Positions 4,991 to 19,437 of a DNA stretch of 21,201 nucleotides are shown in pieces. The DNA is from a bacterium (GTDB taxonomy: Bacteria; Sysuimicrobiota; Sysuimicrobiia; Sysuimicrobiales; Humicultoraceae), in NCBI GenBank assembly GCA_041497675.1, contig JBGQGY010000061.1:1-21201 (forward strand), in the 5' to 3' direction. The position numbers were made by a program, and so were the translations under genes. The first letter of the stretch is position 1. Each line of letters opens with the position of its first letter. Below the pieces are notes generated by a model, which saw nothing but the letters and a program-made list of their open reading frames with translations, was not told where the DNA came from and did no database searches.

Positions 4991-5899
4991 ATGGCGGAAC
5001 GTCCCGGTTTTCTGGGCCGGCTGCGCGCGACGCTGGCCCGCACGCGCGAGGCGCTGGGCGCCCGTGTCGACGCCCTGCTCGCGGGTCCGCTCGATGAGCG
5101 CTTTTTCACCGAGCTCGAAGAGGCGCTGATCCAGGGCGACGTTGGCGCCACGTTGTCCGCCGAGATCGCCGAACGATTGCGCCAGCAGACCTCGGGTGCG
5201 CGTACGTCCGAGGAACTACGCGCGCGGCTGGTGGCCATTATCACCGAGCTCCTGGGGACCCCGCACGTCCTTCGCCTCGACCCCCCGCCGGCCGTTGTGC
5301 TGATCCTGGGTGTCAACGGGTCGGGCAAGACGACCACGATCGGCAAACTGGCGCACCGCTTGCGCGGCGAGGGCCGGCGGGTGCTGCTGGCCGCCGGCGA
5401 CACGTTTCGGGCCGCGGCCATCGAGCAACTGGAAGTCTGGGGCGAGCGGGCCGGTGCGGCGGTGATCCGTCACCAGGAAGGGGCCGATCCTGCGGCGGTG
5501 GTCTTCGATGCCGCACAGGCGGCGCAGGCGCGCCGGGCCGATGTCTTGATCGTCGATACGGCGGGCCGGCTGCACACGAAGGTGAATCTCATGGAGGAAC
5601 TCAAAAAGGTGGACCGGGTGATTGGTCGCGCGCTGCCCGGCGCACCGGTCGAGCGGTTACTCGTGATCGACGCGACGACAGGCCAGAACGGGTTGGCCCA
5701 GGCCCGGCATTTTCATCGGGCCGTGGGGTTGACGGGCCTGGCGCTCACGAAGCTCGACGGCACTGCCAAGGGCGGCATCGCCGTGGCCGTTGTACGCGAG
5801 TTGAACGTCCCGATCGCGTTTGTCGGTACGGGTGAGGGTCTGGACGATCTTGACCCCTTCGATCCGGCGGTGTTCGCCGCCGCCCTGCTCGCCTCGTAG
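4991..5899 (+). CDS. ftsY: SRP receptor FtsY (short NG-only form, no acidic A domain)
   Basis: GVNGSGKTTT, DTFRAAA, DTAGRLH, TKLDGTAKGG; follows smc. Confidence 0.97.
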   Translation: MAERPGFLGRLRATLARTREALGARVDALLAGPLDERFFTELEEALIQGDVGATLSAEIAERLRQQTSGARTSEELRARLVAIITELLGTPHVLRLDPPPAVVLILGVNGSGKTTTIGKLAHRLRGEGRRVLLAAGDTFRAAAIEQLEVWGERAGAAVIRHQEGADPAAVVFDAAQAAQARRADVLIVDTAGRLHTKVNLMEELKKVDRVIGRALPGAPVERLLVIDATTGQNGLAQARHFHRAVGLTGLALTKLDGTAKGGIAVAVVRELNVPIAFVGTGEGLDDLDPFDPAVFAAALLAS

Positions 5900-5926: not shown

Positions 5927-5955
5927 TTGACCACGTGTGTCCGGTGCGGTATCGT
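5927..5955 (+). promoter_or_regulatory. Putative sigma70/sigmaA promoter for the ylxM-ffh-rpsP operon
   Basis: TTGACC (5927-5932), 17 nt spacer, TATCGT (5950-5955) in the ftsY-ylxM gap. Confidence 0.65.
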
Positions 5956-5969
5956 ACCGGAGGATCACC

Positions 5970-5993
5970 CTGTCAAGGAGAGGACCTTTACAG
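5970..5993. promoter_or_regulatory. Imperfect palindrome (candidate operator or SD-masking hairpin) over the ylxM-fusion RBS
   Basis: CTGTCAAGG-agagga-CCTTTACAG, 8/9 complementary, ending immediately before ATG 5994. Confidence 0.55.
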
Positions 5994-6860
5994 ATGCAGT
6001 CCGGTGACCGCGCCCTTCTCGGACGCGACCGCGCGAACCAGATGCTCGATGCCTACGGCGCACTGCTGACAGCGCGCCAGCGAGAGCTGCTGCGCCGCTA
6101 CTATCAGGACGATCTCTCGCTGGGAGAAATCGCCGAACAGGCACGGGTCTCGCGTCAGGCTGTGCACGATACGCTGCGTCGGGCCACGGCCTCCCTCGAC
6201 CGTTTCGAGTCTGCGCTGGGGCTGGTGGGGGGCGCGCGCCGAGCCGACCACTACTTCACGCGTACGCCACGCTCGCCGGAGCGGTTCAGGATCATCCGCG
6301 ATACCTTGCGCGGGCGTCCATGGGCGTTTCGCGTAGCGTCCGGGGTATTTGCCGGGCGCGGCATCGATCCCGGGACGCGGCTATTGATTGAGGCGATGCA
6401 GATTGGTCCGGGCGACCGGGTCCTCGACTTGGGGTGCGGGTACGGGGCGGTCGGTTTGACCGCGGCCGCGCTGGCCGCAAAGGGCGAGGCATGGCTGATC
6501 GACATCAATGAACGCGCGGCGATGCTGGCCCAGATGAATGCGGCAGACCACGGCGTATCGAACGTGCACGTGATGATCGGTAACGGAGCCGCCGCGATTA
6601 GGTCGGAGTGTATGGATGTCGTCGTGACGAACCCACCGATCCGGGCCGGGCGGCGTGCGGTGACGGCCTTTATCGATGACGGCTGGCGCGCGCTGCGGCC
6701 CGGCGGGCGCTTCTACCTGGTCGCCCGTACAGCGCAGGGCGCACAGACCATCGCGAAGCTGATGGCCGCGCGGTTTGGGACGGTCACGCAGGTGCGCGCC
6801 GAGTCCGGCTACCGCGTCTACGAGGCGCGGCGCGTGGCCGCGCCCCGGGAGACACGCTGA
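5994..6860 (+). CDS. Fusion of a YlxM/UPF0122 HTH domain and an RsmC/YbxB-like class I SAM-dependent methyltransferase
   Basis: N-term YGALLTARQRELL..YYQDDLSLGEIAE...VSRQAVHD..RR...L..FE..LGL (YlxM); C-term DHYFT..P, GVF..ID.GTRLLI, VLDLGCGYG, VVTNPPIRAG; sits in the usual ylxM slot; stop overlaps the ffh start (TGATG). Confidence 0.88.
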   Translation: MQSGDRALLGRDRANQMLDAYGALLTARQRELLRRYYQDDLSLGEIAEQARVSRQAVHDTLRRATASLDRFESALGLVGGARRADHYFTRTPRSPERFRIIRDTLRGRPWAFRVASGVFAGRGIDPGTRLLIEAMQIGPGDRVLDLGCGYGAVGLTAAALAAKGEAWLIDINERAAMLAQMNAADHGVSNVHVMIGNGAAAIRSECMDVVVTNPPIRAGRRAVTAFIDDGWRALRPGGRFYLVARTAQGAQTIAKLMAARFGTVTQVRAESGYRVYEARRVAAPRETR

Positions 6861-8188
6861 TGTTCGAAAGCCTACAAGCCCGCCTCGGCGAGATCTTCAA
6901 GAAGGTCACCGGTCGGGGGGTGCTGCGTCCCGAGGACGTCGATGCCATCCTGCGCGAGGTACGTCTGGCCTTGCTGGAGGCCGACGTCAACTTCAAGGTC
7001 GCGCGCGACTTCGTCGAGCGCATTCGCCAGGCGGCGACGGGGCAGGAGGTGTGGAAACACCTCAGCCCGGGACAGCAGGTGGTCAAGATCGTCCACGAGG
7101 AACTCACGGCGCTGCTGGGTGGGCAGCCGCGGCAACTGCGTACCGCGCCGCATCCGCCGACGATCTACTTACTGGTCGGGTTGAACGGTGTCGGCAAGAC
7201 CACGACGGCGGGAAAGCTGGCCGGCTGGCTGCGCAAACGCGGCAAGGCCCCGCTGCTGGTGGCAACAGATCTTCAGCGGCCCGCGGCCGTCCAGCAGTTG
7301 CAGATCGTCGGCAAACAGGTCGGCGTGCCGGTTTTCGCGCTCGCCGGCGCCAAAGCCCCGCTCGCCGTGGCGCGCGCGGCGGTCGACCGGGCGACGGCCG
7401 ACGGTCACGATGTGGTCATCATCGATTCGGCGGGCCGGCAGCACATCGATGACGCGTTGATGGCCGAACTCAGCCAGATGCACGAGGCGCTGCAACCCCA
7501 CGAGACGATCCTGGTGCTGGATGCGATGGCGGGTCAAGACGCGGTCAAGAGCGCGGAGCAATTTTCGGCCCGCCTACCGATCGATGGTCTCATTCTCACC
7601 AAGATGGACGGCGACGCCCGGGGCGGCGCGGCGCTGTCGGTGGTGGCGACGATCGGGAAGCCCATCATGTTCGTCGGTGTCGGCGAGCGTACCGACGCGT
7701 TGGAGGCATTTCATCCTGACCGGATGGCGTCGCGGATCCTGGGCATGGGCGACGTCCTCACCCTGATCGAGCGCGCCGAGCAGACGATGTCGGCTCAGGC
7801 CGCAGCCGAGATCGAGCGCAAGCTGCGTAAACACCAGTTTACGTTTGAAGACTTCCTGAGCCAGCTGCAACAGGTCCGGCAAATGGGGCCGCTGGATCAG
7901 CTCCTGGAGATGATCCCCGGTTTCTCTCGGGCGAAGGCCGCCGGTCTCACGGTGGACGAGAAGCAACTGGGCCGGATCGAGGCCATGATCCGATCGATGA
8001 CGCCGCAGGAACGATCGAACCCCGTCATGATCGACGGCAGCCGCCGCCGCCGAATTGCGACCGGCAGTGGTGTCACCGTGCAAGATGTAAACCGATTGCT
8101 GAAACAGTTCGACGAAACCAAGCGGTTGATGCGGCACATGGAGGAGCGACAACGAGCTGGGCGAGGGTTGCCGTTCCCGCCGCGGTGA
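6860..8188 (+). CDS. ffh: Signal recognition particle protein Ffh
   Basis: MFESL start, ALLEADVN, GLNGVGKTTT, DSAGR, TKMDGDARGG, RILGMGD, M domain with SMT..ER and SRRRRIA.GSG. Confidence 0.98.
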   Translation: MFESLQARLGEIFKKVTGRGVLRPEDVDAILREVRLALLEADVNFKVARDFVERIRQAATGQEVWKHLSPGQQVVKIVHEELTALLGGQPRQLRTAPHPPTIYLLVGLNGVGKTTTAGKLAGWLRKRGKAPLLVATDLQRPAAVQQLQIVGKQVGVPVFALAGAKAPLAVARAAVDRATADGHDVVIIDSAGRQHIDDALMAELSQMHEALQPHETILVLDAMAGQDAVKSAEQFSARLPIDGLILTKMDGDARGGAALSVVATIGKPIMFVGVGERTDALEAFHPDRMASRILGMGDVLTLIERAEQTMSAQAAAEIERKLRKHQFTFEDFLSQLQQVRQMGPLDQLLEMIPGFSRAKAAGLTVDEKQLGRIEAMIRSMTPQERSNPVMIDGSRRRRIATGSGVTVQDVNRLLKQFDETKRLMRHMEERQRAGRGLPFPPR

Positions 8189-8304: not shown

Positions 8305-8577
8305 ATGGTCAAGATTCGGTTGATGCGCGTCGGGGCAAAACATCAGCCTTCGTACCGGGTGGTCGTCGCCGATTCCAAGTCCCCCCGAGGCGGCAAATAC
8401 ATCATGCTGCTCGGCTTCTACAATCCTCGGACTGAGCCGTCGGTCATCAAGATTGACGAAGCCAAGGCGCATACGTGGCTCGACCGCGGCGCCCGGCCGT
8501 CCGATTCGGCGCGAGTGTTGCTCCAGAAGACCGGCATCCTGCAACGGTGGGAAGCCGGTCGGACCAAGGCGACGTAG
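8305..8577 (+). CDS. rpsP: 30S ribosomal protein S16
   Basis: MVKIRLMRVGAKHQPSYRVVVADSKSPRGG...LGFYNP; strong GAGGAGGT SD. Confidence 0.98.
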   Translation: MVKIRLMRVGAKHQPSYRVVVADSKSPRGGKYIMLLGFYNPRTEPSVIKIDEAKAHTWLDRGARPSDSARVLLQKTGILQRWEAGRTKAT

Positions 8578-8589
8578 AGATCACCCGCT

Positions 8590-8835
8590 ATGCCCCAGAC
8601 AGATCTGCGGGCACTGGTAGAGTTCCTCACGCGCGGCTTTGTCGAGCGCCCGGAGGCGGTCATCGTTCGATTGTCCGAGCGCGGCCAAGTCGTGTCTATC
8701 GAGATCCGCGTGGCACCCGAAGACGTCGGGAAGGTCATCGGTCGGCGGGGACGGGTGATCGGCGCGATTCGCACGCTGGTCAAGGCGGCGGCCCTGCGAT
8801 CTGGTCGCCGAGTCGTGGTGGAGGTCGTCCATTAA
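8590..8835 (+). CDS. khpA: KH-domain RNA-binding protein KhpA (YlqC)
   Basis: 81 aa; DVGKVIGRRGRVI.AIRT GxxG loop; directly after rpsP. Confidence 0.93.
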   Translation: MPQTDLRALVEFLTRGFVERPEAVIVRLSERGQVVSIEIRVAPEDVGKVIGRRGRVIGAIRTLVKAAALRSGRRVVVEVVH

Positions 8836-8865
8836 CGCGCAGCCGAGGCGCTCACGGAGGGCGGT

Positions 8866-9270
8866 ATGGGGATCACAGTTGTTCGGCCGGTGATGGTGAA
8901 GGCCATCGTGACGGAGACCTTCAAGAGGCAGTACCTGGCCGAACTGGAGGATACCGCGAAGAGGCTGGAATTACTCATCGGCCAAATCGACACGCAGATC
9001 AGGCGGACCGAACTGGAACGGCAGATCACGCCTCAGTCCCGAGCGGTCCGGCAGCAATTGGAGATCGAGCGGTCGCGTCAGGAGGCCGCCCACATGGAGT
9101 TGGCGGCGCGGGTCAAAGAGGCGGAGGCCCTCGAGTTGCAGTCGGAGTTCTCCCAGGGGACCGTCGAGAGCATGGTGGAACTGAGCCTCGGCGACAACTT
9201 CTTTACGCGGCTGGCTCGCGCTGAGATCATCCTTAAGGATGGAATCGTCATCGAGATCCGAGAGAGATAG
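8866..9270 (+). CDS. ylqD: YlqD family protein
   Basis: ITVVRPVMVKAIVTE, central coiled coil, QGTVES.VE...GD and EIILKDGIVIEIR; lies between khpA and rimM; GGAGG SD. Confidence 0.85.
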   Translation: MGITVVRPVMVKAIVTETFKRQYLAELEDTAKRLELLIGQIDTQIRRTELERQITPQSRAVRQQLEIERSRQEAAHMELAARVKEAEALELQSEFSQGTVESMVELSLGDNFFTRLARAEIILKDGIVIEIRER

Positions 9271-9823
9271 ACCGGCGCCCGATCGCGGGGCCTCGGTCCC
9301 CCGGCGCAGCACGGACGCCGCCGACCTGATCACCATCGGTCGGATCGTGGCGCCCCATGGCATTCGAGGGGAACTCCGTGTGCGTCCCGAGACCGATTTT
9401 CCGGAGCGATTTGTCCAGCTGCGGCGCGCGTTCCTGGTGCGAGATGGGCGCACGGAGGAAGTGGAAATCAGCGCAGTGCGTCCGCACCGGGATGGCCTGC
9501 TCGTCGTCCTGGGCGGTGTCGGCGACCGCACCACCGCGGAGCACCTGCGCGGCGCGCAGATCGCCGTGCCGCGGGCCGATCTCGTGCCGCTGGCCGCCGA
9601 TACCTTCTATGTGTTTGAGATCATCGGCATGCGCGTGCGGACCGATGATGGCCGGGACCTCGGCATCGTCGATGAGGTGATGCGCGGACCTGCCAATGAC
9701 GTGTATGTCGTGCGGAGCGAAGGGCGCGAGACCCTGGTGCCTGCCGTCCGCCAGTTCGTACGGGCCATCAACCGGGATGCGCGTGAGATCACCGTCGTGC
9801 TGCCCGCGGGGCTCGAGGAGTAG
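9239..9823 (+). CDS. rimM: Ribosome maturation factor RimM (start uncertain)
   Basis: IGRIVAPHGIRGEL, FYVFEIIG, ANDVYVV, LVPAV PRC-barrel features; precedes trmD. Confidence 0.93.
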   Translation: MESSSRSERDRPAPDRGASVPRRSTDAADLITIGRIVAPHGIRGELRVRPETDFPERFVQLRRAFLVRDGRTEEVEISAVRPHRDGLLVVLGGVGDRTTAEHLRGAQIAVPRADLVPLAADTFYVFEIIGMRVRTDDGRDLGIVDEVMRGPANDVYVVRSEGRETLVPAVRQFVRAINRDAREITVVLPAGLEE

Positions 9824-9826
9824 TCG

Positions 9827-10546
9827 GTGCGCATCGACATTGTGACGATCTTCCCCGAAGCCTTCGCCGCGCTCGACATGTCGATCATCGGTCGTGCGCG
9901 CGAGCGGGGTCTGCTCGACATTCAGGTGCGCGATCTGCGCGACTACACGACAGACCGGCACCGCCAGGTCGACGACATGCCCTACGGCGGCGGGCCGGGG
10001 ATGGTGATGAAACCAGATCCGTTCTTCGCGGCGACCGACGCGCTGAGGGCGCCCGGCGCGCCCTCCCGCCTGCTGCTGACGTCGCCCCAAGGGCGGCGTT
10101 TCGATCAGCGGGTCGCGGAAGAACTCGCCCGTGAGTCCCACCTGATCGTCCTCTGCGGCCGGTATGAGGGTGTGGACGAGCGGGTCGTCACCGGGTTGGG
10201 CGCGGAGGAAATCTCGATCGGTGACTTTGTCTTGACCGGCGGCGAGCTGGCTGCGATGGTGATCGTCGACGCGACGGTGCGGCTGGTCGAGGGCGTCGTG
10301 GGCGACCAGGCGTCGGTCGCGGCCGAGTCGTTCGCCGGCGGCCTCCTCGACTACCCGCACTACACCCGGCCCGCCGAGTTCCGCGGGCAGCGCGTCCCAG
10401 ACGTGCTGCTCACCGGACACCACGAGCAGATCAGACGGTGGCGGAGGCGCGAGCAGCTGCGCCGGACACTTGAGCGCCGGCCCGACCTGTTATCTCTTGA
10501 TCTCCTGACCGAGGAAGACCGGGCGCTGCTGCGGGACAACAGCTAA
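9827..10546 (+). CDS. trmD: tRNA (guanine37-N1)-methyltransferase
   Basis: [45 protein letters not shown]. Confidence 0.98.
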
Positions 10547-10555
10547 CGGCTTCGC

Positions 10556-10581
10556 CAACCGGTGTTGGCAACCGGTGTTGG
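10556..10581. repeat. Perfect 13-bp tandem duplication CAACCGGTGTTGG x2
   Basis: 10556-10568 and 10569-10581 are identical; GCCAAC/GTTGGC gives hairpin potential. Confidence 0.8.
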
Positions 10582-10607
10582 CCCGTCGAAGCGGGCTGTG
10601 CTACAAT
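10578..10607 (+). promoter_or_regulatory. Putative extended -10 promoter for rplS-lepB-rnhB-yraN
   Basis: TG-c-TACAAT (10599-10607) with TTGGCC (10578-10583), 18 nt spacer. Confidence 0.6.
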
Positions 10608-10656
10608 TCAAGATTGTGCTGCGACGTCGTTGCGACGTCGCCTGCGGGAGGCGGCG

Positions 10657-11001
10657 ATGACAGAGAAACTCAGAGCCATCGAGGCGGCGCAACTGAAGAA
10701 GAAGGTCGGAGAGTTCCTACCGGGTGATACCGTGCGCGTCCATGTGAAAATCACCGAGGGAGGGCGCGACCGTCTGCAGGTCTTCGAGGGCACCGTGATC
10801 GGCCGGCGGGGCGCGGGCATCGGCGAATCCTTTACCGTCAGGCGCGTCAGTCACGGGGTCGGCGTCGAACGCGTTTTCCCCCTGCACTCGCCGCGGGTCG
10901 AGAAGGTCGACGTCGTGCGCAAGGGCCGCGTCCGGCGCGCCAAGCTGCACTATCTCCGCAGCAAGATCGGGAAGGAGACGCGCGTCAAGGAACAGCGCTA
11001 G
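10657..11001 (+). CDS. rplS: 50S ribosomal protein L19
   Basis: [57 protein letters not shown] before ATG 10657. Confidence 0.98.
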
Positions 11002-12502: not shown

Positions 12503-12880
12503 ATGGCCGCGCCAACGCGTCGAGTCCTTGGTGCAAGTGGTGAGACTGCAGCCGCAGCCTGGCTGGAGACCCGCGGCTACAAGATCATCGCCCGCAACGT
12601 CAGGACGCGGTACGGCGAGATTGATCTGGTCTTACGGCGTGGCGCGCTCGTCGTCTTCGTTGAGGTCAAGAGCCGCACCAGCGACCGCTTCGGGCATCCG
12701 GCCGATGCGATCGTGTGGCGCAAGCGCCGGCGGCTAGTCCAGTTGGCCGAAATGTGCCTGCAGCGGCTGGGGCTGGAACACTGCGCCGTGCGGTTCGATG
12801 TGATCGCCGTTCACCTGAGCACCGACGGCCGGGTGAGGGAGGTGGAGCACATTCCCGACGCATTCAGCGCCGATCCCTAA
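12503..12880 (+). CDS. yraN: YraN family (UPF0102) PD-(D/E)XK nuclease
   Basis: G..GE..AA.WL...GY.IIARN, GEIDLV, FVEVKSR, RFDVIAV, HIPDAF. Confidence 0.95.
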   Translation: MAAPTRRVLGASGETAAAAWLETRGYKIIARNVRTRYGEIDLVLRRGALVVFVEVKSRTSDRFGHPADAIVWRKRRRLVQLAEMCLQRLGLEHCAVRFDVIAVHLSTDGRVREVEHIPDAFSADP

Positions 12881-14316
12881 CGCAGCACCGCCTCGCGGTG
12901 CGCGGGGTCCAGCGCGCCGGCCAGTCGCTGCGCGGCGTCCGTGCCTTGCCGGATGCAATCAGGGATGCCGACGCCGCGGTAGCCGGCGCCCGCCACCGCG
13001 ATGCCGGGGAGCGATCGCAGGCCCGCCTCGATCGCCTCGAGCCGGTCGAGATGCCCCGGCAGATACTGCGGCATGGCCTGCGGCCAGCGCGCGATGTGGG
13101 TGAACACCGGGGTCGCGTCGATCCCCATGAGGCGCGCGAGGTCCGCTTGGGCGGCCGCAGCCAGACGCGCGTCGTCCTCAGCCACGATCGCATCGCGGCC
13201 GGCGCTGCCCAGATAACATCTCAGCAGGGCCAGACCGCTGGGGGCTCGGTCCGGCCACTTGGACGAGACCCAGGTACATGCGGTGATCTGCATCGGCTCG
13301 CGGCGCGCGACGACGAAGCCGTGACCCTTGAGCGGGTGCGCGATCTCCCCGCGCCTGTAGGCCAGCGTCACCGCTGCGGTCGACGCGTACGGGATAGTGC
13401 GAAGCAGGGCGGCCACGCTCGGGGCCAGCGGTTCGAGGAGATCGGCGGTGTTGAAGGCCGGCGCGGCCAGGAGCACGCCGTCTGCGTCGAGCGTCCGACC
13501 ATCGCCCAGGTGCACCGTGTATGGCGCTGCGGTTGTGGCGCGGTCGATGCGAACCACCGGCTGCCCCGTCACGACCTCCGTGCCTGTGAGTGCCTTCTGC
13601 AGCGCGTCGATCATGCCGCCCAGGCCGCCGGCGAGCCCGAGGAACATCGGGCGCCCGCCGCTGCCGGCCTTTGGCGCGCGGCGCCGCTGCGTCACCGCGG
13701 CCAGGATCAGGCTGCGATGGTCTGTTTCCCATTGCTGCAGTTGAGGAAACGTGGCGCGGAGGCTGAGCGCATCGGCATCACCGGCGTAGATGCCGGCCAG
13801 CAGCGGTCCGACGAGGCGGTCGACGGCGGCGCGACCAAGCCTCCGGGCGATGAATGATCCGACGGTCTCGTCGCCGTCCGGCGCGCGTCTCGGCAGCACG
13901 AGATCCCAGGCCATTCGCGCTTTGGCCGCCGGCGACAGCAGGCTCGTGCGAACCATAGGCCACACTTGCGTCGGGATGCCGAGCGCCAGACCCGGAGGGA
14001 GAGGGTGGAGCCGGCCTCGCGCGGCGACGTAGACGGTACGGCCGGGGAGCGTGCCGATCAGTCGATCATTCAGTCCAAGCGCGCGGCAGAGTTCCACCGC
14101 CGCGGGCTTGGAGGCCAGGAATGAGTCTGGCCCGGTTTCGACGACGCAATCCTGGATGCGTTCGGTCCGCACCTTGCCTCCAAGGCGTGCGTCGCGCTCC
14201 ACCAGGGTGCAGGCCAGCGGGAGATCGTGTGGCGTGGGACGCGCCATCAGGGCGTAGGCGGCGGCCAGACCCGTGATGCCGCCCCCGACGATGACGACGT
14301 GGGCGGGCCGACTCAC
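12877..14316 (-). CDS. hemY: HemY-type coproporphyrinogen III / protoporphyrinogen oxidase (CgoX)
   Basis: FAD motif VVIVGGGITGLAAAY, RLGGK, ETGPDSF, GIYAGD...LS, AMPQY..GH, GVGIPDCI.QG. Confidence 0.95.
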   Translation of the reverse strand: MSRPAHVVIVGGGITGLAAAYALMARPTPHDLPLACTLVERDARLGGKVRTERIQDCVVETGPDSFLASKPAAVELCRALGLNDRLIGTLPGRTVYVAARGRLHPLPPGLALGIPTQVWPMVRTSLLSPAAKARMAWDLVLPRRAPDGDETVGSFIARRLGRAAVDRLVGPLLAGIYAGDADALSLRATFPQLQQWETDHRSLILAAVTQRRRAPKAGSGGRPMFLGLAGGLGGMIDALQKALTGTEVVTGQPVVRIDRATTAAPYTVHLGDGRTLDADGVLLAAPAFNTADLLEPLAPSVAALLRTIPYASTAAVTLAYRRGEIAHPLKGHGFVVARREPMQITACTWVSSKWPDRAPSGLALLRCYLGSAGRDAIVAEDDARLAAAAQADLARLMGIDATPVFTHIARWPQAMPQYLPGHLDRLEAIEAGLRSLPGIAVAGAGYRGVGIPDCIRQGTDAAQRLAGALDPAHREAVLR

Positions 14317-15359
14317 GACGCGGAGTGCGCCGGTGAGGTGCGGCGCTCGGCGGCCTCGTGGACCGCGTCGACGACCCGGCGCAGGTGATCGACGGGGGTC
14401 GCGGGGAGGACGCCGTGACCCAGGTTGAAGATGTGCCCCGGCCGGCCGTTGGCCTCGGCGAGCACGTCCCGGGTCGCGGCTTCGACGACCTCAGGTGGCG
14501 CCAGAAGGACCGCGGGATCGAGATTCCCCTGGATGCTGCGACCCCCGATCTGCGCCCACGCCTCCCCAAGCCGTACGCGCCAGTCGACACCGATGACATC
14601 ACCACCCGCGGACGCCATCAGTCGAAGCAATCCCGCCGTCCCCGTGCCGAAGTGGATCGTCGGGACCCCGGCGATCTTCAGCCCGTCGAATAGACGCCGC
14701 ACGTAGGGCAGCACCGACGTCTCGTAGTCTCGCGGGGCGAGCGCGCCGACCCACGAGTCGAAGACCTGTACGACCTGCGCGCCGGCGGCGATCTGCGCCC
14801 GTAGGTATGCCAGCGTCGCGTCGGTGAGCGTATCCATCAGTCGCGCCCACAGATGCGGCGCTCCGAGCAACATTCGTCTGGTCTCAGGCACGTCCCGCGA
14901 GCCCCTCCCCTCGATGAGGTAGCTCCCGAGGGTGAAGGGTCCGGCCGCAAAACCAATCAGCGGAACCGGCGCGGCCCGGCGGATCAGTCGAATGGCCTCG
15001 AGGACGAACGGGACGTCTCGCTCGGGTTCGAAGGGGCGCAGCCGGTTGATGTCTGCCTCCGTGCGCAGCGGGGCGTGGATCACCGGGCCGACGCCTTCCA
15101 CGATCTCGAACTCGACCCCCAAACCCAGCAGCGGCAGCGTAATGTCCGAGAAGAGGATGGCCGCGTCGACACCGAGTTGCTCGACGGGGTGCAGCGTGAC
15201 CTGGGCGCACAGCTCCGGCACGCGGCAGAGGTCGAGCAGCGCGTAGCGCTGTCGCAACGCGCGGTATTCCGGCTGGTAGCGGCCCGCCTGGCGCATGAAC
15301 CAGACCGGTGTGCGGTCCACCGGTTCGCCGCGGCAGGCGCGCAGCAACCGGTCGTTCAC
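14313..15359 (-). CDS. hemE: Uroporphyrinogen decarboxylase
   Basis: PVWFMRQAGRY.PEY, DAAILFSDI, QVFDSW, QGNLDP, HIFNLGHGV. Confidence 0.97.
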   Translation of the reverse strand: MNDRLLRACRGEPVDRTPVWFMRQAGRYQPEYRALRQRYALLDLCRVPELCAQVTLHPVEQLGVDAAILFSDITLPLLGLGVEFEIVEGVGPVIHAPLRTEADINRLRPFEPERDVPFVLEAIRLIRRAAPVPLIGFAAGPFTLGSYLIEGRGSRDVPETRRMLLGAPHLWARLMDTLTDATLAYLRAQIAAGAQVVQVFDSWVGALAPRDYETSVLPYVRRLFDGLKIAGVPTIHFGTGTAGLLRLMASAGGDVIGVDWRVRLGEAWAQIGGRSIQGNLDPAVLLAPPEVVEAATRDVLAEANGRPGHIFNLGHGVLPATPVDHLRRVVDAVHEAAERRTSPAHSAS

Positions 15360-16060
15360 GGAGCGACCCTCGCCGTCACGGGCATGCCGAGCAGCCCGAG
15401 CACCTCGGGGAGCGGACGGTGAATCCCCACCAGGATCGGCGTATCACGCACCGTGTACTTCCGGCCTTCAGTGGCGCGCAACGCCTGGACCAGATCCTGG
15501 AACGCCGTCAGGTCATCGGTCTCGTACGCGACGATGAACTCCTGATCGTCCACGCCAAACGAGTACGCCAGCAACTGCTGCACCATGGGATACTGGTGTC
15601 CGATGCGAATGTGCTCGTTCATCATGCGCTGGCGGTCGTCGCGCGTGCTCAGATACCAGTCGGTCGACTTGACGAAGGGATAGACGATCAGATAGGCGGC
15701 CCGCGTGCCGCTGAACATCGCCTGTTCCTGTACGGTGGGAGTCTTGACGTACTGGGAGTGGCGCACCAGCCCGAGCATCGAGTATGAGACGCTCAGATAC
15801 CGGCCCAGACCCGCCTGCAGCAGACTTGCCGTGGTCTCTTCCATCGCCTGAACCGACGGGCCCAGCCGCCACAACAACACATCGACATCCGCGCGCAGAC
15901 CCACCATCGAGTAGGTGAACGTGCGTACCCGCTCGGCGGCGGTGTCGGCCGCGCCGATGAATGTCGCGCCGTCGCGCTGCCGCACGTCATCGGAGAGCCG
16001 GCGCCAGGACGGGTCGAGTTTCAACGCCAGCACGTGGACAACGTTCCACGGCTCGGTCAT
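15356..16060 (-). CDS. hemQ: Coproheme decarboxylase ChdC/HemQ (chlorite dismutase-like family)
   Basis: YS..GLRADVD.LLW, YPFVK..DWY, RQRMM.EH...G, SFGVDDQEF; located inside the heme operon; ATG 16060 has a GGAGG SD and overlaps the hemB stop. Confidence 0.85.
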   Translation of the reverse strand: MTEPWNVVHVLALKLDPSWRRLSDDVRQRDGATFIGAADTAAERVRTFTYSMVGLRADVDVLLWRLGPSVQAMEETTASLLQAGLGRYLSVSYSMLGLVRHSQYVKTPTVQEQAMFSGTRAAYLIVYPFVKSTDWYLSTRDDRQRMMNEHIRIGHQYPMVQQLLAYSFGVDDQEFIVAYETDDLTAFQDLVQALRATEGRKYTVRDTPILVGIHRPLPEVLGLLGMPVTARVAP

Positions 16061-17058
16061 GCTCGTTCCTCCCGCAGCCACTGCGCCGCGTCGGCCGCCG
16101 CGTACGTGATCACGATATCCGCGCCAGCGCGGCGGATCGCGCTCAGGATCTCCATGACGGCGCGGCGCTCCTCGAGCCAGCCCTGGGCGACCGCGGCCTT
16201 CACCATGGCGTATTCACCGCTGACCCAATAGGCCGCGAGGGGCAGCGTCGTGGCTTCACGGGCGGCGCGGATGACGTCGAGATACGTCAGCGCCGGTTTG
16301 ACCATGACGATGTCTGCGCCTTGCTCGGCGTCGAGCGCGATCTCGCGCAGCGCCTCCCGCACGTTTGGTGGATCCATCTGGTACGAGCGCCGGTCGCCAA
16401 ACTGCGGGGCCGACCCGGATGCGTCGCGGAAGGGTCCGTAGAATCCCGATGCGTACTTGGCGGCATAGGCCATGATCGCGACGTCGGCAAGACCGGCGTC
16501 GTCCAGACTGCCGCGGATCGCGCCGACCTGCCCATCCATCATCGCGCTGGGCGCGACGACGTCGGCCCCGGCCGCTGCGTGCGAGACCGCGGTGCGCGCC
16601 AGGAGGTCCAGCGTGGCGTCGTTGTCAATCTCGTGACCGCGCGCGACCCCGCAGTGACCGTGATCGGTATAGGCGCACAGACACACGTCGGTCATCACGG
16701 CCAGGGTCGGGTGGCTTCGTTTGAGCAGCCGGATGGCGCTTTGCACGATACCGTCATCGGCGTAGGCCTCCCGCGCCTCTGGATCTTTCGTCTCTGGAAC
16801 GCCGAAGAGCAGGACCGCAAGGATCCCCAGGTCCCGCAGACGTCCGGCCTCGCGGACAAGTTCGTCCGGCGAGAAGCGCATCTGACCCGGCAGCGACTGG
16901 ATCGGCTCGCGGACACGTTGGCCCGTGCGAACGAATAATGGGGCGACAAAGCGCGAGGGATCGACGCGCGCCTCGCGGGCCAGCGTGCGCAGCGCGCTCG
17001 TACGTCGCAGCCGCCGGGGACGCTGGGTCAGGCTAGCGAGCAAGGCGGTTCTTGCCAC
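16057..17058 (-). CDS. hemB: Porphobilinogen synthase (Zn/Cys type)
   Basis: RPRRLR, DVCLCAYTDHGHCG, SAMMDG, KYAS.FYGPFRDA, MVKPA, VSGEYAM. Confidence 0.97.
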   Translation of the reverse strand: MARTALLASLTQRPRRLRRTSALRTLAREARVDPSRFVAPLFVRTGQRVREPIQSLPGQMRFSPDELVREAGRLRDLGILAVLLFGVPETKDPEAREAYADDGIVQSAIRLLKRSHPTLAVMTDVCLCAYTDHGHCGVARGHEIDNDATLDLLARTAVSHAAAGADVVAPSAMMDGQVGAIRGSLDDAGLADVAIMAYAAKYASGFYGPFRDASGSAPQFGDRRSYQMDPPNVREALREIALDAEQGADIVMVKPALTYLDVIRAAREATTLPLAAYWVSGEYAMVKAAVAQGWLEERRAVMEILSAIRRAGADIVITYAAADAAQWLREERA

Positions 17059-17812
17059 GATCAGACACCTCCAACAGCGCCTTGATCAATCCGTTAATGG
17101 TATATTCCCTCGCGACGACTCCGGGACGCAGCCCGGCTTCCGTGACGGCGCCCGCCGTGACCGGGCCGATGCAGGCGATCGTGACACGCTCGAGCTCCTG
17201 CCGCGCCGCGCCGAGAAGACGCACGAGCCCACGAACCGTCGATGGGCTCGTAAACACGACGACGTCGACGCCCTGGGCCTCGAACAACCGTCTGATCCGC
17301 GGCCCCGCCCGACGCGGTCCGATCACCGTTCGGTAGGCGGTGACCACCTCGACGGTTGCGCCACGGTGCCGCAGGGCGTCCACCAGCGCCGGTGACGCCG
17401 CATCGGTACGAGGGAGCAGGATACGGCGCCGGTTCACGTCCGGCATCTCGACGGCGATGGCCTCGGTCAGATAGCGTGAGGGGATCATGGCCACGCGGAT
17501 GCGGGCCCGGCGCAGCACGGCCGCGGTTGCGGGGCCAACGGCGGCCCACAACGGACGGGGCGTCGATCTCAAGTTGACACCCAACGCCGCAGCCCGCGCG
17601 ATGCAGGCGCGGGCGCCATTGACGCTCGTGACAATGACCCAGTCATACCTCTTGAGATCGTGCAGGGCCCGATCCAATCGCCCGCCCGGCGCCGGCGGCT
17701 CGACGGCGATCATGGGAACGGCCACGACCCGCGCGCCCAATTTCCGGAGACGGTCGCAGAGCGGGCGGCTCTGCGCGCGCGGTCGCGTGACCAAGACCGA
17801 TCGTCCGGCCAA
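17033..17812 (-). CDS. hemD: Uroporphyrinogen-III synthase (stand-alone; start may be CTG 17836)
   Basis: LAGRSVLVTRP, DWVIVTSVNG, AVGPATA, AYRT, FTSPSTV, CIGPVT. Confidence 0.93.
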   Translation of the reverse strand: MAGRSVLVTRPRAQSRPLCDRLRKLGARVVAVPMIAVEPPAPGGRLDRALHDLKRYDWVIVTSVNGARACIARAAALGVNLRSTPRPLWAAVGPATAAVLRRARIRVAMIPSRYLTEAIAVEMPDVNRRRILLPRTDAASPALVDALRHRGATVEVVTAYRTVIGPRRAGPRIRRLFEAQGVDVVVFTSPSTVRGLVRLLGAARQELERVTIACIGPVTAGAVTEAGLRPGVVAREYTINGLIKALLEVSDRGKNRLAR

Positions 17813-17832
17813 CGGACGCCGTTGACCCGCGC

Positions 17833-18741
17833 TCAGCTCGCCACCTCGGTCATCAGGTTTCGTGCACCTCGTTCGATCAGCTGCCGGCCGAGCTGCTCGC
17901 CGACCCGCCCGGCATCGCGGACCGCGCCGGTGATGCGGTCACGTATGATGCGCGAGCCGTCGGGATCGAGCACCGCCCCATCGAGCAGGAGCGTCTCGCC
18001 GTCACAGACGGCGTGCGCGGCGATCGGGGTGTCGCAGGTGCCTCCCAGCGCGGCCACCATTGCTCGCTCCGCCTCCACGGCGGCGCGCGTCGGAGGGTCA
18101 TCGAGACCCTTGAGGGCGCGGAGAAGATCACCGGCGTCGGCTCGCGCCTGCAGGGCCATCGCGCCCTGCCCGGCTTCGGGCAACATCACCCGGGGATCGA
18201 ATCGCTCGGTGACGCGGTCGGTCAGTCCCAGCCGCGCCAGACCCGCGGCAGCCAGCACGATGGCATCGACCCCACCGGCTTCGAGTTTGCGCAGGCGTGT
18301 GTCGACGTTGCCGCGCATGCCCTGAATCGACAGATCGGGCCGCGCGGCGAGGAGGAAGGCGCGGCGCCTCGGGCTCTCGGTCCCCACGGCGGCTCCGACC
18401 GAGAGCGACCGCAGACCGCGCCCGTCGCGGGAGACCAGCACATCCAAGGGGTCGGCGCGAGGCGGAAACGCCGCGAACACCAGCCCGGCCGTGGGCTCGC
18501 CGTGCAGGTCCTTGGCGCTGTGCACAGCCAGGTCCACGCGCCCCTCGGCAAGCGAGACCTCGAGGTCCTTGACGAACACCCCCGACCCGAGCGTGCGGGT
18601 CGGCGCGTCGGGATGTCGATCGCCCTGCGTCCGGATCGTCACGATCTCGCAGCGGATGCCGCGTTGCGCGAGCGCGTCGGCCACCGATCCCGTCATGGCG
18701 AGCGCGAGCCGGCTCCCGCGCGTCCCGATCCTGATGATCAC
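17833..18741 (-). CDS. hemC: Hydroxymethylbilane synthase (porphobilinogen deaminase)
   Basis: IRIGTRGSRLA, T.GD, DLAVHSAKD, RGNVDTRLRKL, AGQG, cofactor Cys in GGTCDTPI. Confidence 0.96.
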   Translation of the reverse strand: MIIRIGTRGSRLALAMTGSVADALAQRGIRCEIVTIRTQGDRHPDAPTRTLGSGVFVKDLEVSLAEGRVDLAVHSAKDLHGEPTAGLVFAAFPPRADPLDVLVSRDGRGLRSLSVGAAVGTESPRRRAFLLAARPDLSIQGMRGNVDTRLRKLEAGGVDAIVLAAAGLARLGLTDRVTERFDPRVMLPEAGQGAMALQARADAGDLLRALKGLDDPPTRAAVEAERAMVAALGGTCDTPIAAHAVCDGETLLLDGAVLDPDGSRIIRDRITGAVRDAGRVGEQLGRQLIERGARNLMTEVAS

Positions 18742-19391
18742 TGCAGCGCCGCCCGCCGGGCGCCCTCGGGCACAGACCGGTCCCAGGCGCGCAACATCGT
18801 GAGGAAGATCTCGTCCATCACGTCGCTCGTCTCGATCAACGTCTTGACCTGCGCTTCGTCGAGCAGACCGCCCCGACCGCGCGGGTCGGTCACCATCTTC
18901 AACACGAGGTGGCGGAAGAAACCGAATGCCTCGGCGGCCTCCGCGGGGCTGACGTGCGCCTGGTGGAGTTCTTCACCGTACGCTTTGGCCCGGCCAAGCA
19001 GCTCGGTGCGGACAGTTCGCCGCGACGAGGGGTCGGTGACGTAGCGCACGACGGCCTCGAACAACGGCCGTCCATGATCGCGCGCCTTGGTGCGCACATC
19101 CTCATCGAGTGTCGAGAACCAGGCCCGTTTCCGCAGGGGTTTGGCGGGGGCTCCGGCCAGGAGTTTGGCGCTTCGGCGCGCGACGAGCTGACCGAGGTCT
19201 TCCACGCGGGGGACGTCGCGCTGGATCAAGGCCTCAAGATCGTCGCCCAGGAATCGCCGGTGCCCACCGGGTGTCCTAAATGTTCGCACGCGGCCCGTGT
19301 CGGCCCAATGCCGCAGCGTCGCTTCGTCGACGCCCAACAGCGACGCAGCTTCACCCAGCGGCAGCCATCGTCCAGAACGCGTTTTCGTCAT
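18738..19391 (-). CDS. BldC/excisionase-like (MerR-type winged HTH) DNA-binding protein with an uncharacterised helical C-terminal domain
   Basis: WLPLGEAASLLGVDEATLRHWADTGRVRTFRTPGGHRRF at the N-terminus; stop overlaps the hemC start (GTGA); ATG 19391 preferred because TTG 19418 lies within the predicted promoter. Confidence 0.85.
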   Translation of the reverse strand: MTKTRSGRWLPLGEAASLLGVDEATLRHWADTGRVRTFRTPGGHRRFLGDDLEALIQRDVPRVEDLGQLVARRSAKLLAGAPAKPLRKRAWFSTLDEDVRTKARDHGRPLFEAVVRYVTDPSSRRTVRTELLGRAKAYGEELHQAHVSPAEAAEAFGFFRHLVLKMVTDPRGRGGLLDEAQVKTLIETSDVMDEIFLTMLRAWDRSVPEGARRAALQ

Positions 19392-19408
19392 AAACGGATG
19401 TAGCCCAT

Positions 19409-19437
19409 ATTCTATCAAAATCTACGCAATCCTCCAA
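19409..19437 (-). promoter_or_regulatory. Putative sigma70 promoter of the HTH-hem operon
   Basis: On the - strand: TTGGAG (19437-19432), 17 nt spacer, extended TG-a-TAGAAT (19417-19409), in an AT-rich island. Confidence 0.7.

Follow-up and report, generated by a model that had tools for sequence, protein, structure and literature searches.

A YlxM–methyltransferase gene fusion of single origin in the SRP operon of Candidatus Sysuimicrobiota

The window analysed here, the whole 21,201-nucleotide stretch of contig JBGQGY010000061.1 (assembly GCA_041497675.1), carries in order a GT4 glycosyltransferase gene, smc, ftsY, a fused ylxM::MTS gene, ffh, rpsP, khpA, ylqD, rimM, trmD and rplS, then genes for a signal peptidase, rnhB and a UPF0102 protein, and finally a heme-biosynthesis cluster on the opposite strand (Table 1). 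Between 1316 and 12880 on the plus strand the order smc-ftsY-ylxM-ffh-rpsP-khpA-ylqD-rimM-trmD-rplS-lepB-rnhB-UPF0102 is strikingly Bacillus-like and includes the little-studied ylqD, in a phylum that NCBI often labels Armatimonadota. With the methyltransferase part left aside, we take this to be the gene order of B. subtilis. The heme cluster (12877–18741, minus strand) comprises genes for an amine-oxidase-type oxidase, hemE, a chlorite-dismutase-like (HemQ-type) gene, hemB, hemD and hemC, a set that points to the coproporphyrin-dependent route; a MerR/HTH gene follows at 18738–19418.

Table 1. Coordinates of the fused gene, its parts and its operon neighbours in the window.
Feature	Position	Strand	Remarks and basis
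ftsY (SRP receptor), upstream neighbour	4991..5899	+	Pfam SRP54, SRP54_N
Promoter-like TTGACC-17-TATCGT in the 94-nt ftsY–ylxM gap	5927..5955	+	Consensus scan; pattern match only
Shine-Dalgarno-like AAGGAGAGG	5975..5983	+	10 nt upstream of ATG 5994; sequence reading
Fusion gene ylxM::MTS (P0001)	5994..6860	+	288 aa; ORF list, translation, Pfam, NCBIfam
YlxM/UPF0122 core, helix-turn-helix module without C-terminal tail	6027..6230	+	Residues 12-79; PF04297, NF045758, sequence matches to PDB 1S7O and 1XSV
Linker GGARRADH	6231..6254	+	Residues 80-87; alignment A1, pLDDT
MJ0882/YbxB-type single-domain RNA (guanine-N2)-methyltransferase-like domain	6255..6833	+	Residues 88-280; 1DUS by sequence and Foldseek, Pfam MTS
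SAM-binding motif I DLGCGYG	6426..6446	+	Sequence reading; columns invariant in A1
Catalytic motif IV NPPI	6630..6641	+	Sequence reading; N213, P214 and P215 invariant in A1
TGATG, fusion stop/ffh start, 1-nt overlap	6858..6862	+	TGA 6858-6860 shares its A with ATG 6860-6862
ffh (SRP54 homologue)	6860..8188	+	Pfam SRP54_N, SRP54, SRP_SPB
rpsP, khpA, ylqD, rimM, trmD, rplS (ribosome-biogenesis genes)	8305..11001	+	Pfam

A single frame (5937/5994–6860, plus strand) without any internal stop joins a YlxM core to a complete methyltransferase. An initial annotation of this DNA had singled out this uninterrupted frame, the intact DLGCGYG and NPP motifs and the stop that overlaps the ATG of ffh. The open reading frame, the sequence itself and the Pfam and NCBIfam matches bear out all of these. 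In an alignment of 29 fusions (A1) homologues begin near residue 4 counted from ATG 5994. Both domains are strongly conserved in A1 and both motifs are invariant; the linker ranges from 0 to about 40 residues among the aligned homologues, and the C-terminal tail varies in length within the family. The AF2 model has a mean pLDDT of 85.9, with weak spots at residues 1–6 and in the stretch between helix 54–75 and the first methyltransferase strand, where linker residues 80–83 fall below 50. The YlxM module is modelled as helices 3–24, 27–38, 43–50 and 54–75, and strands 98–105 and 108–115 form an N-terminal beta-hairpin as in the 1DUS fold. A complex prediction for the YlxM module (residues 1–82) and the methyltransferase (85–288), both taken from A1, scored 0.00, a value that carries no weight either way.

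The N-terminal module belongs to the YlxM/UPF0122 family. Pfam PF04297 matches residues 12–79 (E 6.8e-21, profile positions 5–72 of 101) with 74.9 bits against a cut-off of 22.7, and the NCBIfam model for YlxM, NF045758, is passed with 82.8 bits against 80. The module shares with YlxM of B. subtilis and S. mutans a helix-turn-helix core that scores above both cut-offs, and it is likewise encoded between ftsY and ffh in a Bacillus-like synteny. It thus keeps the position of ylxM upstream of ffh in the SRP operon, with the methyltransferase part inserted between the core and ffh. It differs from these proteins in the loss of the C-terminal 30–50 residues and in its covalent junction to an enzyme, and so is no full-length stand-alone YlxM of about 110 amino acids with C-terminal helices. 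Solved YlxM chains align to it just to about residue 75–80 of their 113, and split relatives in the same phylum carry 35–59 more residues; the absence of the C-terminal helices, perceived initially from the sequence, is therefore upheld. YlxM is called specific to Firmicutes and Tenericutes in the literature consulted, whereas here it is present outside Bacillota and Tenericutes. PMC8546722, citing Williams 2014, describes S. mutans YlxM as binding Ffh and SRP RNA, not FtsY, and as modulating GTP hydrolysis. Binding to Ffh or SRP RNA has been described for Streptococcus only, and the tail absent from the fusion may be needed for it. For B. subtilis, ylxM is reported to share a transcript with ffh, and its product to interact with YneF.

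The C-terminal module is a complete MTS-type methyltransferase: Pfam PF05175 covers residues 112–277 (E 2.3e-37, profile positions 4–170 of 170). Its best solved relative by sequence is MJ0882 (PDB 1DUS, E 2.5e-34 over residues 88–280), and Foldseek also ranks 1dus at the top (E 1e-19, target TM 0.90, rmsd 2.0 over 193 columns), followed by RsmC of T. thermophilus and E. coli and then by RlmG. The nearest cultured homologues are genes of about 200 amino acids in Paenibacillus, Cohnella and Brevibacillus, with 41–45% identity. One of these, from Paenibacillus (L022), lies between rplL and rpoB, presumably the slot that ybxB occupies in B. subtilis. Domain length, fold and the GCGYG and NPPIRAG motifs are those of the MJ0882/YbxB type; the proteins of that type stand alone, whereas the fusion sits in the SRP operon behind an N-terminal YlxM module. 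With RsmC (E. coli, T. thermophilus) and RlmG it shares a homologous catalytic domain (2PJD, 3DMF, 2ZUL, 4DCM), and with RsmC also a two-module layout, non-catalytic at the N-terminus and catalytic at the C-terminus. In RsmC, however, the N-terminal part is derived from the methyltransferase fold itself as a degenerate copy, according to PMC1934991, whereas that of the fusion is an unrelated helix-turn-helix. The NCBIfam model for RsmC (NF007023) gives 51 bits against a cut-off of 295, and the N-terminus is YlxM, not MTS_N. PMC1934991 further presents RsmC as the product of a duplication of an MJ0882-like fold, in which the N-terminal copy binds RNA and the C-terminal one is catalytic, and MJ0882-type proteins as its single-domain ancestor. 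The next-best relatives (P0088, P0122 and others, 360–420 amino acids) in many cases hold two tandem MTS domains in an RsmC/RlmG-like manner; in P0088 both copies score strongly.

As to substrate, a preprint (bioRxiv 10.64898/2026.05.25.727669) credits B. subtilis YbxB with the addition of about one m2G to 16S rRNA; in its discussion this m2G is assigned to helix 34. The ybxB deletion strain is described there as growing poorly at 25 °C and resisting streptomycin, and as showing a drop in 23S m2A that the preprint leaves unexplained. An equation of YbxB with RlmQ (m7G2574) was considered and dropped, RlmQ being YwbD. With 33–45% identity to the YbxB-type genes of Bacillota, the fusion is probably a methyltransferase of the same specificity. 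It is the sole YlxM and the sole full-length PF05175 match in the 98.6%-complete source genome. The initial annotation had proposed looking for a separate ybxB or rsmC; no other full-length match to PF05175 occurs there. The source genome also encodes a long Alu-type SRP RNA (G000:C102:12984-13250; RF01854, 176 bits, full model), whose S domain is matched by RF00169 too. This genome thus has YlxM together with the long SRP RNA. The long SRP RNA with an Alu domain is the form found in Bacillus.

The junction between the two modules is a true fusion and no artefact of assembly. Contigs from three other sediment-metagenome DNA runs (X1, X2, X5) span it with no indels across 6090–6730, and their only differences from the window are a 1-nt deletion in the ftsY–ylxM spacer and, for related strains in two of the runs, 15 nt inserted in frame at window position 6830, within the fusion's C-terminal tail. 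Nor is the architecture peculiar to one genome, the other way in which it might have been discounted at the outset: both domains are present in 87 of the 120 listed homologue clusters (54–93% identity), and 23 loci of the phylum survey described below are fused. The fused homologues come from NCBI, JGI, ENA and Logan assemblies. A match with 71% identity from Candidatus Fervidifonticultor secundus helps to place the family in Candidatus Sysuimicrobiota. In a search for fusions that arose independently elsewhere, a profile run against 1.84 billion representatives found one protein, P0076, with both domains covered among the best 150 matches; none of the 148 newly listed representatives had both, in a list below which matches of weaker methyltransferase similarity fall. 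Searching with the YlxM part among proteins of 158–504 amino acids gave 81 matches, 79 of them in the same fused family, by a word-limited method that reaches close relatives only. Several longer methyltransferase matches considered as possible fusions (P0151, P0215, P0254, P0164, P0139, P0223 and P0260) were rejected, since they have no YlxM domain. The initial annotation knew of no described example. This holds for the literature searched on YlxM, on this type of methyltransferase and on the phylum, in which no published description of the architecture was found, and the words ‘YlxM’, ‘signal recognition’ and ‘methyltransferase’ are absent from the main text of the phylum paper. It does not hold for databases, where entries with the architecture exist under the automatic names ‘methyltransferase’, ‘16S rRNA (guanine1207-N2)-methyltransferase’ and ‘YlxM family DNA-binding protein’.

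At the RNA level, one metatranscriptome contains two 151-nt contigs over the junction (6090–6240 and 6226–6376, depth 2), a weak hint of transcription that might stem from carried-over DNA. Uncovered bins in RNA run X19, and two RNA runs of small share, carry no information on expression level. From the continuous frame we infer translation as a single polypeptide. The alternative that two proteins are made, by internal initiation or by cleavage of the linker, is very improbable in our judgement. It could draw on the disorder of the linker in terms of pLDDT and on an in-frame GTG at 6225, 21 nt ahead of the methyltransferase domain, which the initial annotation had named as a possible separate start. 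This codon, however, specifies Val, the conserved last residue of LGLV, and as a start it is not conserved, even in a relative with 93% identity. The nearest in-frame start lies 21 nt upstream of the methyltransferase domain in five of the 23 fused loci and 27–129 nt upstream in the other 18; the distance is 84 nt in a locus from the same genus (L091) and 111–129 nt in L103, L108 and L111. The unbroken frame, by contrast, is retained through linkers of many lengths.

How widespread is this arrangement among the relatives of the source organism? The survey covered 94 genomes of Candidatus Sysuimicrobiota (CSP1-3), all from one order, and yielded one locus from each of 90. In the remaining four (G006, G017, G050, G084), ylxM, the methyltransferase gene and a true ffh are all missing; the locus is probably absent from these drafts, which were counted as uninformative. 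Twenty-three loci are fused, 64 are split into two genes and three are cut by a contig end. One fused locus (L111, genome G024) comes from a genome flagged as unpublished; leaving it out gives 22 fused loci among 89. The methyltransferase gene or part follows ylxM in each of the 87 loci that show both, ffh comes after it in the surveyed loci listed, and on every contig that extends far enough ftsY is found upstream of ylxM. In 46 of the 64 split pairs the ylxM stop overlaps a GTG or ATG of the methyltransferase frame as (G/A)TGA and in a further four the overlap is 1 nt, so that stop and start codons overlap in 50 of 64 altogether; the genes lie within 25 nt of each other in 11 pairs and further apart in three. 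At the other junction, 73 of the 90 loci have an 8-nt overlap between the end of the methyltransferase gene and the start of ffh, which accounts for the Val with which most members of the family terminate; the window's own gene has changed to the 1-nt TGATG overlap. Throughout the phylum the genes keep the order ylxM–methyltransferase–ffh and are translationally coupled. Among 74 loci from outside the phylum with the closest stand-alone methyltransferase homologues, not one contains ylxM, ffh or ftsY at a distance of about 4 kb or less.

The fusion arose once and was kept. On an Ffh tree of 83 rows, from which seven of the 90 loci were dropped with ffh cut or matched over fewer than 380 residues, a single branch (SH-aLRT 99) separates all fused loci from the rest, and one change suffices. 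One change to the fused state, with a support of 100, is also what FastTree gives for the methyltransferase domain (161 rows, 74 of them outsiders), in a tree where long branches blur the separation of the phylum from the outsiders. The fused clade spans eight genera, and all 23 of its sampled members retain the fusion. The residues that follow the YlxM core number 8–15 in the sister genera g5, g6 and g8, which belong to the same family as the fused clade, 35–59 in families f3–f7, where they form a helical tail, and 78 in genus g4. Since the short tail is already present in the split sister group, loss of the tail probably preceded the fusion. Members of the fused clade share, as a pairwise mean, an identity of 0.77 in the YlxM core, 0.67 in the methyltransferase and 0.78 in Ffh. 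Split clades give much the same values, so that both modules look functional and little changed. Fused-versus-split identities are just 2–4 points under split-versus-split ones, a difference too small to interpret, and there is no marked acceleration after the fusion. We envisage a likely path in which the starting state would be a coupled three-gene cassette of ylxM, the methyltransferase gene and ffh, present throughout the phylum. The C-terminal helical tail of YlxM would then have been lost in one family. In one clade a change of frame would have removed the stop/start overlap and created a single frame, and the floppy linker between the modules would afterwards have been free to vary.

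What might the joined protein do? The reading that we favour, and hold to be rather probable, is that a true fusion of single origin gave rise to a bifunctional protein in which both modules keep their ancestral activities. The C-terminal domain would make m2G in helix 34 of 16S rRNA (G1207 in E. coli), the activity reported for YbxB of B. subtilis. The role of YlxM, whose streptococcal counterpart binds Ffh and SRP RNA, would remain with the N-terminal module. The covalent link would fix a 1:1 ratio and hold the two modules together, and may reflect a long-standing co-translation with ffh. Two of the neighbouring genes, rpsP and rimM, are tied to the 30S subunit, and helix 34 is part of the 30S head. 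Given these neighbours and this target, a ribosome-biogenesis setting would suffice to explain the position of the gene.

The coupling seen across the phylum exceeds usual operon membership, and for this reason the modules may act as one unit rather than independently. In such a scheme YlxM and the methyltransferase would form one functional unit throughout the phylum, with the YlxM helix-turn-helix as the accessory for docking on RNA or the 30S subunit that a single-domain enzyme lacks, in the role of the non-catalytic N-terminal domain of E. coli RsmC, and the fusion would make a pre-existing complex permanent. We consider this unlikely, yet worth keeping in view. It is consistent with the adjacency of the two parts at all 87 informative loci, with the overlapping stop and start codons in 50 of 64 split pairs and with a fusion that none of the 23 sampled clade members in eight genera has lost. 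It also has a precedent in E. coli RsmC, whose N-terminal domain is described as RNA-binding and whose single-domain ancestor would be of the MJ0882 type (PMC1934991), and the reported binding of SRP RNA suggests that YlxM can bind RNA (PMC8546722). These points have to be set against the 74 outside loci, none of which pairs this methyltransferase with ylxM, ffh or ftsY within about 4 kb, and against the Paenibacillus copy (L022) between rplL and rpoB. The variable and disordered linker, in addition, gives no suggestion of a fixed interface between the domains. In the initial annotation a functional link had been proposed in a different form, with the YlxM module carrying the methyltransferase to the SRP, where SRP RNA, Ffh or SRP-bound ribosomes would be methylated instead of, or besides, the 16S site. 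The tie between YlxM and the methyltransferase is supported by the conserved and coupled gene order, but the proposed targets find no support, the enzyme being an ordinary one with unchanged motifs, and we regard this retargeting as improbable. In its favour are the direct binding of Ffh and SRP RNA reported for YlxM (PMC8546722, citing Williams 2014), the translational coupling of the fusion gene to ffh and the long Alu-bearing SRP RNA of the genome (RF01854, 176 bits). However, the catalytic motifs and the fold are like those of stand-alone family members, and the methyltransferase domain shows no marked change after the fusion. No second full-length MTS-type gene is present in the source genome to take on m2G1207, which implies that it needs the fusion for the canonical job. 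Furthermore, the SRP docks at the exit tunnel of the 50S subunit, far from helix 34 in the 30S head, and tethering to the SRP would thus be no help in reaching the canonical site.

Control of the operon by SAM status was a further proposal made at the outset, and it is unsupported by the analysis: the catalytic domain is an ordinary enzyme of the MJ0882/YbxB type. On this account the fusion would be a SAM-sensing, DNA-binding regulator of the ylxM-ffh operon, with a helix-turn-helix resembling sigma-70 region 4 on the promoter and a methyltransferase fold that serves as a ligand sensor only. Weak Pfam Sigma70_r4 matches inside the YlxM core (E 2.5e-7), the NCBI family name ‘DNA-binding protein’ and the promoter-like site just upstream could be read along these lines. 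Yet the catalytic NPP is invariant in 29 of 29 aligned fusions and would be superfluous for a mere sensor, and the enzyme is a separate protein in the split relatives. DNA binding by YlxM is named in NCBIfam but not reported as shown in the papers found. We find this explanation hardly credible. The bifunctional protein with two ancestral activities is retained as the preferred reading; the data show its anatomy, its conservation, its single origin and its place in the gene order, while its substrate and a persisting YlxM activity are inferred.

What are the implications for YlxM? Its mechanism is barely understood despite its conservation and its reported essentiality in the minimal cell JCVI-syn3A. 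The present data place YlxM in a further phylum, where it is locked to a 16S rRNA m2G-type methyltransferase and to ffh by coupling and, in one clade, by fusion. Among the genomic signs that two proteins serve a common process, fusions of the Rosetta-stone type rank with the stronger ones. If the modules are independent, the locus is a clean example of overlapping genes that fused after the loss of a tail. We also entertain, as an unlikely idea, that YlxM is not purely an SRP accessory and that in this phylum the methyltransferase for helix-34 m2G has it as an obligate partner for docking on RNA or the 30S subunit. If this were true, the cassette and the fusion would expose a physical connection of the SRP machinery with the late steps of 30S-head maturation, and, if the link is ancestral, YlxM would have an unrecognised ribosome-related role in Bacillota too.

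A few loci and proteins depart from the common layouts. In nine of the 64 split loci (L115, L116, L118–L122, L152 and L155, from families f3 and f4) ylxM and the methyltransferase gene are in the same frame with one stop between them, which is TGA, TAG or TAA. Read-through of this stop could give a fusion-like product, and in GC-rich DNA the shared frame is possibly a matter of chance. P0272 (281 amino acids, on a 1142-nt contig) combines a YlxM domain with matches to the GTPase families PF01926, PF02421 and PF03193, and could represent a further fusion of YlxM or, given so short a contig, an error of gene calling. P0093 (231 amino acids, 45% identical to the query) is fused and lacks the linker and the first ~45 methyltransferase residues, including the N-terminal beta-hairpin.
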